From sequence record OQ703618.1: a stretch of 64,000 nt of DNA; one strand, written 5' to 3'. A program made the translations under genes and the position numbers. Below are positions 37,570 to 41,248 of this stretch, in pieces. The notes below the pieces were generated by a model. The model had not been told where the DNA came from. It was given only the letters and a program-made list of their open reading frames with translations, and did no database searches. Every line of letters starts with the position of its first letter. Within the stretch, counting starts at the first letter, position 1. The stretch comes from Escherichia phage GADS24.

Positions 37570-37938
37570 TTATGCAACTTTAATCCAATTGTCTAAATTT
37601 AAAACACCTTTGGCTTTCATTTTTTCTATCAGGTTATCTGCTGTAATGCGTCCATTTTGATACCATGTAACATCTTCAGAGTAACCAGTTTCTTCGTCAA
37701 CGTATGTTTCTGAACGAATTTTACCGGTAATAATAGTTTTTAATTCGTATGTGTCACCTGTGAAAAAGTTTGCTAACACAATTTTCCAAGAGAAATCATC
37801 AGAAGGACCTTCAGGGGTCATACAACCTACGAACTCAAATTGCTCTTTGTATAACATCCACTGGAATTCTTTAATTTCGATAGCTTTATAACCATCGTGG
37901 TCTTTACATTTGATGTATGAGTTCAGATTGATTTTCAT
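37570..37938 (-). CDS. Hypothetical protein
   Basis: 122-aa ORF with its own early-promoter-like element. Confidence 0.6.
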   Translation of the reverse strand: MKINLNSYIKCKDHDGYKAIEIKEFQWMLYKEQFEFVGCMTPEGPSDDFSWKIVLANFFTGDTYELKTIITGKIRSETYVDEETGYSEDVTWYQNGRITADNLIEKMKAKGVLNLDNWIKVA

Positions 37939-38009: not shown

Positions 38010-38045
38010 ATCTTTTTAAACTTTTTCTGCCCTAAACGCACAAAA

Positions 38046-38063
38046 GGGAGACCGAAGTCTCCC
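38046..38063 (-). terminator. Hairpin GGGAGAC-CGAA-GUCUCCC after the small basic ORF
   Basis: Identical 18-mer to the copies at 14965, 53127 and 61453. Confidence 0.6.
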
Positions 38064-38068
38064 TAAAA

Positions 38069-38248
38069 TTATGCAACAACCTTTCCAAAACGAGAAGCAT
38101 CATCTCGAAGAACTGCACGTGCTCTGCGCATGATCTTCTCAACTGTTTGATTAATACGAGAGTTCGACCCACGCTTGTATCCAGCGCGTTTAGAGGTACC
38201 ATCAACTTTCTTTTCGACTGCTTTCTTTGCTTTAGCTTGTTTTGCCAT
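38069..38248 (-). CDS. Small basic protein, 59 aa (MAKQAKAKKAVEKK...)
   Basis: Hand-translated ORF below the track cutoff; Lys/Arg-rich; followed by a GGGAGACCGAAGTCTCCC hairpin terminator. Confidence 0.45.
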   Translation of the reverse strand: MAKQAKAKKAVEKKVDGTSKRAGYKRGSNSRINQTVEKIMRRARAVLRDDASRFGKVVA

Positions 38249-38613
38249 TATAAATTCTCTTTAAATGAAAATGCAGGACTTATTGACATTGCCTGCTCAA
38301 GCCCTCAAGGGGAACATAGGTTTTGGATATTTAACGACAGGATAACCATAAACCCGTCATCATACCTTATAGCTCTTATCTGTTGCACACCGTTAGCTTA
38401 AAGGTTCCGGGTCCGATTTCTCGAGGATAAGATATATACTGATGGATATATAGGCCTTGAGGCGTACTCCCGATTGGCCATCACCTCGGGGTAGCATGCA
38501 CTTACCGCTATAAGAACCACATTCAAGAGGTACACCGTAAAATTGTCGGGGTCTTAAAACTATAATGATTCGCAAATCATTAATCAGACAATTCGACGGC
38601 TCCTCGATTTAAC

Positions 38614-38862
38614 TTACTTCAGGGTAATAACAAAATGACGAACTGCTTTGCGTGCTGCAGAAGCCAGAGGCTTAGCATATTTCAATTCATCTTTCTGGAC
38701 CAGGATATCGCGAAGATCGGCTTGTGCTGGATTCAGATGTTTGAAATACTGTAAGATTTCAAGAGCTTCGGCTTCAACATCAATAGATGCACCGTAATTG
38801 TCATGACCATTATTCCATGCATGGCGTTGCAGTTCAAGAGCGTGTTGTAATTGTTTAGTCAT
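38614..38862 (-). CDS. rIII: rIII lysis inhibition accessory protein
   Basis: 82 aa, same length as T4 RIII, located next to gene 31. Confidence 0.8.
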   Translation of the reverse strand: MTKQLQHALELQRHAWNNGHDNYGASIDVEAEALEILQYFKHLNPAQADLRDILVQKDELKYAKPLASAARKAVRHFVITLK

Positions 38863-38986
38863 TTTAAATTCTCAATTCGAGATAATATTTAGTAGCCACG
38901 TTCTTCTGAATTTCACCTTCTTTCGACAAGTCTCTCAGTTGTAGGCTACTGCTTAGAAGAGTGTTCTCTTCATATAGTTATTTATA

Positions 38987-39319
38987 TCACTTATAAAGAC
39001 ATGGAATAGCTTTATAGTGGCATGTTACGAATTTCTGTTTAATTTCTTTAGGTTGTTTAAGTCCTAAAGCCACAAATGGATGTGGAACATTTCGAATTTG
39101 TCCAACTGGTAGTGGAGTCAAATCACCGACTTCAACAAAACCTTCAGGAACATCAGGACCTACAGAATGAACTACACATAGTTCAGGAACTTCACCTTGA
39201 ACACGTTTACCGATCACAAGTCCTGATTCTGTAACTTCTTCATCACCTGCTTGAGCGGGTTCAGAAACCAGAATGACATATTCACCAACAGCACGAATTG
39301 GGAGTTGTACTTCAGACAT
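38987..39319 (-). CDS. 31: Co-chaperonin for GroEL (GroES analogue)
   Basis: 110 aa (T4 gp31 111 aa); middle promoter upstream. Confidence 0.85.
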
Positions 39320-39376: not shown

Positions 39377-39673
39377 TTACATAAGAAGCAAACGTTCTAC
39401 CGGAGTACCATCAACCGAAATTACTTTATCAAGGCGGAAAGAACGCCACTGACCTAACTTGGTATCGAATGCTCGAACTGATTCACGAGGTTCATAACGA
39501 ACTTCTGTTGCCGGATTGTTATTTTCGTATTTGACTTCAAGTTCATCGCGCGAAGCAAACATAGTGCGTACCTCGCCGTTAGCTTTTTCAAATACAACAC
39601 AATGAACGCCTACAGACAGAATAGTTTTAATACGTTCACGAAGAACCATAGTTTCTTTTTCAGTTAAAATCAT
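39377..39673 (-). CDS. Hypothetical protein (31.1/31.2 position)
   Basis: 98 aa from the first ATG; the track ORF begins at an upstream GTG. Confidence 0.55.
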   Translation of the reverse strand: MILTEKETMVLRERIKTILSVGVHCVVFEKANGEVRTMFASRDELEVKYENNNPATEVRYEPRESVRAFDTKLGQWRSFRLDKVISVDGTPVERLLLM

Positions 39674-39674
39674 A

Positions 39675-40256
39675 TTATTCACCACAAAAGTTTCGGATTT
39701 GTTCCCAATTCAGAGAACGAAGATTATTACGAGAGTACTGAATTACTTCAATACCGGCTTGTTTAAGAATGTCTGCCCAATTTTCAGGAGATCGGTCATA
39801 TAATTCTGCATATACAACCTTTTTAATACCTGACTGTGTAATAGCTTTAGTGCAATCAGGACATGGAGAAAGTGTCGTATACAACGTAGCACCTTCAATA
39901 GAATTACCTTTACGAGCTGCAAACAAAATTGCATTCAATTCTGCATGGATTTCGTTATTAGCAGACCATGCACTATGAGCGGCCCGATGTTCTTTAGCCA
40001 AAACAAAATTATCTACCCGTCCAAATGCTGTAGTGCCTTCTTTATGTCCAGCAACTATGACCGGGCTTGGTTTATTCTTCAACCAACCATTTTCTGATGC
40101 GTGTTCACAACAGTTAACGCCACCTGCTGGTGAGCCATTATATCCAGTAGAGATAATGCGTCCATCTTTTTCAATGACGGCACCAACTTTCCATGAACAA
40201 CATTTTGATTCTTGAGAAATCAGATATGCAATCTGAAGGTATGTGCTAGCTTTCAT
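39675..40256 (-). CDS. cd: dCMP deaminase
   Basis: 193 aa; zinc-binding deaminase motifs HAELNAI and PCPDC. Confidence 0.92.
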   Translation of the reverse strand: MKASTYLQIAYLISQESKCCSWKVGAVIEKDGRIISTGYNGSPAGGVNCCEHASENGWLKNKPSPVIVAGHKEGTTAFGRVDNFVLAKEHRAAHSAWSANNEIHAELNAILFAARKGNSIEGATLYTTLSPCPDCTKAITQSGIKKVVYAELYDRSPENWADILKQAGIEVIQYSRNNLRSLNWEQIRNFCGE

Positions 40257-41248
40257 TATTGAACCTTATTAATATGAGTTAACAGCTCTTTAGTTTGTTC
40301 CCAACTGATGCACGCATCGGTAACGGAAACGCCATAGGACATATTATCAGAAATTTTTTGATTTCCTTCATGTAGGAATGATTCTATCATAATTCCTTTG
40401 ACCAAATCATTAGCTGCTAAATTTTTACCAATACCAATTTGATTGCTATAATGCCCATCAGCGTTTGCATGGCTACAGTCAACCATTACATAATGATTCA
40501 GACCTACTGCCCTTGCTTTGTTAGAAGCTTCTTGAATATCAGAAGAATGATAGTTCGGGCCGTTGGTCCCGCCACGCAATACGATATGCGTATTCTGATT
40601 ACCTTCAGCTTCAACAATGCCTACAGTACCATCGACGTCCATACCCATATACCGATGAGGCCAGGCGGCACTATACATCGCGTCTGTAGCTACTTTAATA
40701 GAACCATTGGTTGCGTTCTTGAAGCCTACGCACATCGGTAGACCTGAAGCAATTTCACGATGTGTCTGACTTTCAGTCGTACGGGCGCCAATAGCAACCC
40801 ATGAGAAAATACCAGAAAGATACTTAATCGTGAATGGGTCTAATACTTCAGTTGCTAATGGAAGTCCCATACGTAGAAGTTTACGACACAATGTTCGTGC
40901 AACTATAAGACCGTGGTTCATATCAAAACTTCCGTCAAGATATGGATCATTTACAAGACCTTTCCAACCTACGGTAGTTCGAGGCTTTTCAAAATAAACG
41001 CGCATCACTAACAGAACATTAGGAAGACGAGTTTGAAGTTCAGCCAGACGTTTGCCGTATTCAACAGCAGCAATAGGGTCATGAATTGAACAAGGACCTA
41101 CAACAATAAGTTTGCGTGGGTCTTCACCGTTCATAATCGAATTAACTTGTTCGCGATGAGAAGCCACTTGTGATGCGTAAGCTTCCGACAAAGGAATAAT
41201 CTCAGCCAGTTCTTTTGGAGAAATAAGTTTTCCGACGACAGGTAACAT
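40256..41248 (-). CDS. 3-deoxy-D-arabino-heptulosonate-7-phosphate (DAHP) synthase, class I, AroH-like
   Basis: 330 aa; strong matches to E. coli AroG/AroH motifs (GPCSIHD, MRVYFEKPRTTVGWKGL, IGARTTESQ, VGFKN, DCSHAN, ESFLHEGNQ); GC content visibly above flanking phage genes. Confidence 0.9.
   Translation of the reverse strand: MLPVVGKLISPKELAEIIPLSEAYASQVASHREQVNSIMNGEDPRKLIVVGPCSIHDPIAAVEYGKRLAELQTRLPNVLLVMRVYFEKPRTTVGWKGLVNDPYLDGSFDMNHGLIVARTLCRKLLRMGLPLATEVLDPFTIKYLSGIFSWVAIGARTTESQTHREIASGLPMCVGFKNATNGSIKVATDAMYSAAWPHRYMGMDVDGTVGIVEAEGNQNTHIVLRGGTNGPNYHSSDIQEASNKARAVGLNHYVMVDCSHANADGHYSNQIGIGKNLAANDLVKGIMIESFLHEGNQKISDNMSYGVSVTDACISWEQTKELLTHINKVQ

Follow-up and report, generated by a model that had tools for sequence, protein, structure and literature searches.

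The 365-base gap between rIII and gene 30.9 of Escherichia phage GADS24 holds a 147-nt element, hereafter the core or module B, which comparison of related phages shows to be a strand-specific, compactly folded and non-coding RNA domain under purifying selection. In its modeled form, a four-way junction gives rise to two coaxial stacks, which a 6-bp kissing loop holds next to each other. Set against Rfam 15 and the literature, it is a previously undescribed putative RNA family for which the comparative evidence is exceptionally strong, although the catalogue of PMC10690425 may include the motif. All coordinates refer to the window, the whole 64,000-nt stretch of DNA that was analyzed. A preliminary description made from the letters of the window had read the gap as a transcribed, non-coding, structured RNA and not a gene, and this reading is strongly backed by covariation in the core and in two flanking modules, A and C.

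The DNA is that of a T4-like (Tequatrovirus-type) phage in which the genes around the gap all lie on the minus strand, and the gap is co-transcribed with them (Table 1). As described earlier, the gap is flanked by the minus-strand genes rIII and 30.9, and no other uncovered stretch inside the window is as long, the runner-up being 124 bp, where an uncovered stretch is one with no ATG ORF of at least 50 aa on either strand. The two reading frames previously pointed out there are also present, namely, a TTG-start 60-aa ORF at 38393-38575 (minus strand) and a plus-strand 84-aa ORF at 38147-38401 that overlaps gene 30.9. The gap had been called noticeably GC rich; its GC content is indeed raised, at 41.6% overall and 46.3% in the central 147 nt, but the enrichment over the window (38.1%) is modest. 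A consensus scan agreed that the gap has no sigma-70-like promoter. No canonical terminator was found in the gap by a consensus scan, which also missed the strong terminator directly after gene 30.9.

Several features of the neighboring DNA were recorded as well. The terminator after gene 30.9 explains weak Rfam matches to the terminator parts of BSR0709 and PhrS, and just 3' of it the motif GTTTAC...TACTAT resembles, by eye, a T4 early promoter for gene 30.8. In the position taken in T4 by cd.1 and the genes that follow it, directly 5' of the dCMP deaminase gene, lies a gene for a DAHP synthase, an auxiliary metabolic gene of aromatic amino acid synthesis that reference T4 does not have at this position. 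Gene 31.1 lies upstream of the RNA modules at a distance of two genes, and its product matches WYL_2 (E = 2e-9), which has an Sm-like SH3 beta-barrel fold. Folds of this kind often bind RNA or small ligands. Gene 31.1 is also present in T4 and is therefore not specific to phages with the core.

Table 1. Genes, RNA modules, and structural elements in and around the rIII-30.9 gap (window coordinates)
Feature	Coordinates	Strand	Remarks
DAHP synthase gene	40256-41248	minus	330 aa; Pfam DAHP_synth_1, E = 5e-75
dCMP deaminase gene	39675-40256	minus	
Gene 31.1 (gp31.1)	39377-39685	minus	
Gene 31 (co-chaperonin gp31)	38987-39319	minus	
Module E hairpin	38890-38952	minus	in the 124-bp gap between gene 31 and rIII
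rIII	38614-38862	minus	82 aa
rIII-30.9 gap	38249-38613	minus	365 bases, non-coding; at least five independently folding RNA modules
Module A	38520-38609	minus	irregular long hairpin, 90 nt; stems GAGG/CCUC, GCCGU/ACGGU, GAAUUGUC/GACAAUUU
Core RNA domain (module B)	38367-38513	minus	147 nt; covariance model, covariation
P1	38507-38511/38369-38373	minus	closing stem
P2	38504-38506/38453-38455	minus	
P3	38484-38495/38462-38477	minus	long hairpin
Kissing loop, 5' half	38478-38483	minus	UGAUGG in the P3 apical loop; pairs with CCAUCA
P4	38446-38452/38433-38439	minus	7-bp hairpin, six-base loop
Kissing loop, 3' half	38440-38445	minus	CCAUCA, the six-base P4 loop
P5	38426-38432/38374-38380	minus	
P6	38421-38424/38413-38416	minus	GAAA loop in the window
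P7	38408-38412/38387-38392	minus	conserved 15-nt loop
Module C	38319-38358	minus	H-type pseudoknot; stem 1 GACGGG/CCUGUC, stem 2 GGUU/AACC
Module D	38298-38315	minus	small hairpin GUUCCCC-UUGA-GGGCUUG; one exact match in the window
Hairpin T	38263-38296	minus	GCAGG/14-nt loop/CCUGC, then AUUUUCAUUU; just 5' of the 30.9 ribosome-binding site
Shine-Dalgarno and AUG of gene 30.9	38246-38262	minus	AAAGAG; from sequence and ORF list
Gene 30.9	38069-38248	minus	basic protein, 59 aa
Strong hairpin terminator	~38040-38063	minus	GGGAGAC-UUCG-GUCUCCC, then UUUUGU
Gene 30.8	37570-37938	minus	

Within the core, a four-way junction with zero unpaired bases joins helices P1, P2, P4, and P5, a three-way junction joins P5 to P6 and P7, and P2 leads through a conserved 8 x 6-nt internal loop into P3. 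P6 is mostly capped by GAAA, with GUAA, UAAA, and UAAU also occurring. The junction strands AAG.GCAU, CCUCAAG, and GCAACA are nearly invariant, as is the P7 loop, GGA.CC...GCUAA. Variation is found mainly in the stems, and most of the junction and loop columns are invariant, which, as far as the alignment indicates, is the pattern expected of an RNA with a single-stranded tertiary core or binding site. A search for further tertiary pairs among the unpaired columns of the core gave nothing convincing, there being too little variation in them.

An alignment of 19 distinct copies of the core (A4) was analyzed with RNAalifold, which returned 44 pairs, 20 of them with compensatory double changes. 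Aligned cells were paired in 98.3% of cases, against 28-43% in slid controls, and none of 500 shuffles reached the observed covariation, although the core sequences are so closely related (the effective sequence number of the covariance model is 0.98) that the shuffle controls overstate the significance. With the kissing loop included, in an alignment that had been fitted to the nested pairs (A5), 24 of 49 pairs showed compensatory double changes, 99.4% of cells were paired (29-41% in slid controls), and again 0 of 500 shuffles matched the observed values. The closing stem P1 itself covaries, with AU, UA, and GC occurring at the same positions (AU in 21 and UA in 6 cases at one, AU in 16 and GC in 10 at another). 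The covariance model built for the core, R1, scored 173.7 bits on the window (E = 3.5e-39) and 122-182 bits on the other full-length copies.

The kissing loop was first spotted by eye and was absent from the covariance model used for aligning. Its six pairs are nonetheless formed in 100% of 28 distinct sequences, three of them with double changes, the variants being UGAUGG/CCAUCA, CGAUGG/CCAUCG, CUAUGG/CCAUAG, and CAAUGA/UCAUUG. The result was repeated on a structure-blind MAFFT alignment of 19 distinct sequences, in which pairing was again 100%. The P4 loop is closed by U-G in 27 of 29 rows, and P3 has a G-U pair in 10 rows; because these pairs would be C-A mismatches on the opposite strand, they place the fold on the transcribed minus strand. 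When the window sequence was folded by itself, in contrast, it was no better than its shuffled versions (minus strand, z = -1.0; plus strand, z = -0.9). The evidence for structure thus comes solely from the comparison of related phages, and it is this comparative folding that bears out the structure proposed earlier.

The particular pairings quoted in the preliminary description fared less well. The complementary blocks are present in the sequence as quoted, but they differ from the pairs that evolution has conserved. CCTCAAGG near 38303, said to pair with CCTTGAGG near 38453, sits in the small local hairpin of module D, and CCTTGAGG contributes a junction and the 3' strand of P2 in the core. 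Likewise, CTCGAGG near 38420 pairs locally in the tetraloop-capped P6 and not with CCTCG near 38604, which pairs inside module A.

Conservation in related phages, the lack of which was to count against the earlier reading, was found for both sequence and structure. A blastn search matched the gap in approximately 995 of 50,697 phage records, with 179 of the matches being nearly full length. The core alone was found in 407 GenBank phage records, at one place per record among the matches listed. Its carriers span at least eight genera of T4-like phages of Enterobacterales and include Tequatrovirus, Dhakavirus (JS98), Moonvirus (Merlin), Karamvirus, Klebsiella phages of approximately 167 kb, Muldoonvirus, Roskildevirus (Cronus), and Kagamiyamavirus (EcS1). 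At all loci examined, the core follows the rIII stop codon and precedes the 30.9 start codon, always in one orientation, and the stretch that holds it has been left empty by careful annotators. The core nucleotides are more conserved than the neighboring genes: across genera, identity to the window is 72-98% for the core, compared with 66-81% for rIII, 61-80% for 30.9, and 60-78% for gene 31. Between Tequatrovirus and Dhakavirus, the core is 98.5% identical and rIII 81%.

The core is not found in all relatives. In T4, the flanks are alike but the central 153 nt, corresponding to 38364-38517 of the window, are missing, and R1 gave no match in the T4 rIII region. Among the Escherichia phage records that matched the gap, 130 of 567 (approximately 23%) carry the core. 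Twenty further loci that encode 30.9, searched with filters off, had no core and held the empty allele or other cassettes instead. No homologue of the core was found in E. coli genomes or plasmids, so there is no mimicry of a host RNA at the sequence level. An 18-mer of the core had 10 matches in unrelated MAG contigs; none fits R1, and they were attributed to chance. The records compared show the core RNA to be optional and, on this evidence, restricted to phages.

The modules around the core are structured as well. Module A contains an inner 8-bp hairpin with a UGCG loop, and comparison of 14 variants from Tequatrovirus and Dhakavirus shows compensatory double changes in 5 of its 25 predicted pairs; module A is also present in T4 and absent from most genera. 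In the pseudoknot of module C, likewise present in T4, the GGUU in the loop of stem 1 pairs with a downstream AACC, and the third loop, GUUAAAUAUCCAA, is A rich and conserved. Both stems are kept through differing sequences in 18 of 19 variants, with GUGGA/UCCAC, GUC.UAG/CUAGAC, and GAC.UGG/CCAGUC found in stem 1 and UGUUGGUU/AACCAACG, GUAGU/ACUAC, GUGAG/CUCAC, and UCAAGGUU/AAUCUUGG in stem 2. The stem changes in module D, read by eye, are also compensatory (variants CCCUAUGGGG, CCUCUUAGAGG, CCCUUAGGGG, and CCCUUCGAGG). Hairpin T was not called by the terminator scan; its possible roles are those of a weak terminator, an attenuator, or a 5' stabilizer, and other genera have a hairpin of unrelated sequence with a U-rich run in its place.

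The order of the modules differs among genera. In the window the order is A-B-C-D-T, compared with F-C-G-B-D-E in the Klebsiella phages, D-B-C-T in Karamvirus, B-C-D-E in Merlin, C-B-D-T in Muldoon, and D-B-C-H in EcS1, and the distances from the core to both flanking genes vary. Three alleles with shared boundaries occur in the slot between modules A and C: empty (as in T4), an unrelated structured cassette of 45 nt, and the 147-nt core. The cassette of approximately 45 nt, module H (CUAUCACGCGUCAGAAAAAGGUUAUCUGUCUAAGUCGUGGUUGG), fills the core's slot between A and C at four loci (L070, L076, L077, and L084). Related forms of it occur at L057, L083, L011, and L090, and in some genera a motif related to module H forms the tip of the hairpin just before 30.9. 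A further hairpin, module E, has a base stem that covaries (GUAGC/GCUAC, GGUAGU/ACUACC, GGUGGA/UCCACC, GGGAGC/GCUCCC, and GGCGA/UCGCC) and a conserved internal loop, UACAAC / GAAGAACGUG, after which come a small hairpin containing the Shine-Dalgarno sequence and the start codon. Present in one copy per phage, module E is located 5' of rIII in Tequatrovirus and Dhakavirus and 5' of 30.9 in Merlin, the Klebsiella phages, and Cronus, and from its placement it looks like a movable 5'-UTR operator.

The region was compared with known RNA families. When the 4227 covariance models of Rfam 15 were run on a 1.1-kb region, the gap gave just two matches at E <= 10, both attributable to chance: mir-1275, with 17.3 bits against a gathering threshold of 71, and mcrA, with 10.9 bits against 57.6. 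The core alone had zero matches to Rfam 15 at E <= 10, and no Rfam match was obtained in the gap of six other genera or of T4. ARAGORN called no tRNA or tmRNA gene in the whole window. In the full-text literature searched, including PMC3014915 (a review of post-transcriptional control in T4), PMC9697503 (T4 multi-omics), and PMC9409239 (RIII), no description of an RNA element between rIII and 30.9 was found.

Other RNAs resemble the core in part. The small stable RNAs rnaC and rnaD (species 1 and 2) of T4, which are encoded in the tRNA cluster and are approximately 120-140 nt long, are like it in phage group and size; however, their locus differs, and T4 has them without having the core. Kinship was rejected when the best score of R1 in the T4 tRNA region, with filters off, was 8.3 bits (E = 0.28). 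GOLLD and ROOL are large ornate RNAs, and the core is much smaller than either. The aptamers of the lysine (L2-L3), purine (L2-L3), and cobalamin (L5-L13) riboswitches combine a multi-helix junction with a loop-loop kissing contact. The core shares with them a closing P1, a multi-way junction, conserved junction strands, two arms clamped by a kissing contact, a length within approximately 100-200 nt, and a location upstream of a gene on the same strand; unlike them, it has no Rfam match and no adjacent expression platform, permuted modules lie between it and the gene, and the downstream gene is unchanged in phages without it. The pseudoknot in T4 gene 32 mRNA is an operator for autogenous translational repression (PMC3014915). 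Module C is likewise an H-type pseudoknot in a T-even 5' leader, in this case upstream of 30.9. In module C, however, the unstructured run of UUAAA repeats that leads to the ribosome-binding site is replaced by hairpins D and T, and in some genera module C is upstream of the core and far from 30.9; the gene 32 leader, in turn, has no counterpart of the 147-nt core. More than 10,000 candidate structured RNAs have been catalogued in phage and virus genomes (PMC10690425), and the orphans among them are, like the core, phage borne, supported by covariation, and without an assigned function; the main text of that paper mentions neither T4-like phages nor rIII.

With regard to function, the elaborate fold and the invariant junction strands suggest partner binding or catalysis. 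The favored proposal, which stands at about an even chance, is that the core may be an autonomous, partner-binding RNA and not a classical riboswitch coupled to the 30.9 start. The core would work as an RNA, and independently of its neighbors, through the binding of one specific protein or small molecule. Most likely, a stable core fragment would be released from the mRNA at AU-rich linkers and would act in trans, titration of a host or phage factor being one example, and the near-invariant junction strands would suit a preorganized binding or active site. AU-rich linkers flank the core in every genus, and the core is closed by a covarying stem of its own, P1. Autonomy is favored over a riboswitch wired to 30.9 because the module order is permuted, the spacing to the genes varies, and gp30.9 is unchanged in the absence of the core. 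A link between the presence of the core and a variant of gp30.9 was likewise ruled out, the proteins of T4, which has no core, and of the window being 95% identical. Several points go against the favored proposal. First, T4 and about three quarters of the gap-matching Escherichia phage records are without the core, which is therefore dispensable, at least on laboratory hosts. Second, the core is always found upstream of 30.9 in one orientation, and its P1 is short and AU rich, as in riboswitch aptamers. Third, the folding energy of the single sequence is unremarkable, and the shuffle controls are weakened by the relatedness of the copies.

A more far-reaching version of the proposal is possible, though tentative. 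In it, a new class of functional RNA would begin with the core, whether as a ribozyme or as an aptamer for a ligand or protein, and T-even-type phages would carry it as an exchangeable cassette in a locus of shuffled modules around rIII. One example would be an RNA decoy or sponge that neutralizes a host factor or defense in Klebsiella, Enterobacter, Citrobacter, and some E. coli.

The same upstream position and constant orientation would be explained by a leader acting in cis, in which the core, as the aptamer of a riboswitch, senses a metabolite or protein and controls either read-through of hairpin T or translation of 30.9. The core has the P1-closed domain with conserved junction nucleotides that define an aptamer, together with multi-helix junctions and a kissing loop, 30.9 is preceded in every genus by a hairpin, a U-rich run, and a small hairpin that includes the Shine-Dalgarno sequence, and the gene 32 pseudoknot operator (PMC3014915) is a precedent in T4. 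An expression platform coupled to P1 was not found, however, since modules C and D, whose order and spacing vary, intervene between the core on one side and hairpin T and the ribosome-binding site on the other. The distance between core and 30.9 varies, with one to three independently folding modules in between, and the permutation of these modules means that P1 could not be coupled to one fixed platform. Given also that gp30.9 is nearly the same in T4 without the core, that 30.9 offers no clue to a ligand, and that no riboswitch model was matched, a cis-acting leader is considered rather unlikely.

A less probable candidate is a new class of catalytic RNA, self-cleaving or otherwise, with a role in processing the rIII-30.9 transcript. 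The hairpin and hammerhead ribozymes use junction arms joined by a tertiary loop-loop contact, and self-cleaving ribozymes are common in phage intergenic regions; the core, too, is compact and intergenic, with the arms of its four-way junction held by a loop-loop contact and with invariant junction bases. Nevertheless, no known self-cleaving ribozyme (hammerhead, hairpin, twister, twister-sister, pistol, hatchet, or HDV-like) was matched in Rfam, including at E <= 10 with the core alone, no cleavage site can be inferred, and there is no multicopy or rolling-circle context.

To a similarly low degree, the modules might serve in a generic way as stabilizers or insulators that do no more than keep host RNases, or RegB, from attacking rIII mRNA at its 3' end or 30.9 mRNA at its 5' end. 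The site, which is both the 3' UTR of rIII and the 5' UTR of 30.9, and the hairpin-rich array would fit such a role, and mRNA decay in T4 is heavily regulated, with structure known to shield GGAG sites from RegB (PMC3014915). For protection of this kind, a fold of 147 nt complete with kissing loop and invariant single-stranded junctions is unnecessary, as is nucleotide conservation above that of coding genes, and the T4 allele without the core retains the other hairpins.

A relic without present function, either MITE-like or a degenerate group I intron, is highly improbable. The preliminary description had listed a degraded intron or mobile-element remnant among its suggestions. In its favor, the core is a clean 153-nt indel relative to T4 and is bounded by an inverted repeat, CTTATAGC...GCTATAAG, and the identity of 98.5% between the Tequatrovirus and Dhakavirus cores, against 81% in rIII, could mean recent transfer. 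The suggestion does not hold up, however, against the single copy per genome at a constant locus, a terminal repeat that covaries as an RNA stem (AU, UA, and GC) instead of keeping the fixed sequence of a transposase site, and compensatory changes throughout, which imply continuing selection on the fold. A MITE-like element was rejected on the first two of these grounds. The Intron_gpI model had no match, the T4 allele without the core remains non-coding and intergenic, and the core does not lie within an ORF whose frame it would interrupt.

A gene for a small protein, the TTG-start 60-aa ORF, is the least credible explanation and can practically be dismissed: the ORF exists and is annotated as hypothetical in several relatives in GenBank, but it starts with TTG and has no ribosome-binding site, it takes its N terminus from module A, which is missing in most genera, it matches no family in Pfam or PHROG, each of the six frames of the core is closed by at least one stop in 28 of 28 full-length distinct variants, and the substitutions are compensatory in pairs and not patterned by codon position. 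The conserved small protein that was to count against a structured RNA was accordingly not found in these computations. Spurious coding sequences have been placed over the RNA region in MZ170040, MZ681930, MT630408, OR352951, LR597657, and other records (at 1697-1879 in L001 and L002 and at 1504-1629 in L005), where they are labeled as a hypothetical protein (the 60-aa TTG ORF) or as "1,4-alpha-glucan (glycogen) branching enzyme, GH-13-type," and in some records the start of 30.9 has been extended upstream into the RNA modules.

The core, with a fold as intricate as that of a riboswitch aptamer, is present without annotation in more than 400 sequenced relatives, although few viruses have been studied as intensively as the T4-type phages; the empty allele of T4 itself is the probable reason why the core was overlooked. 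The core RNA outconserves the genes, is optional, and shares its locus with covarying modules that are shuffled among genera, which suggests that phages exchange functional RNA cassettes in the way that they exchange accessory genes. If the core is indeed the founding member of a new functional RNA class, the locus would be an accessory island of RNA and not of protein genes. The natural alleles at the slot (empty, 45-nt cassette, and 147-nt core) suit a direct genetic test. Should the partner of the core prove to be a host defense or a metabolite, the core would represent a new class of phage RNA effector or sensor.
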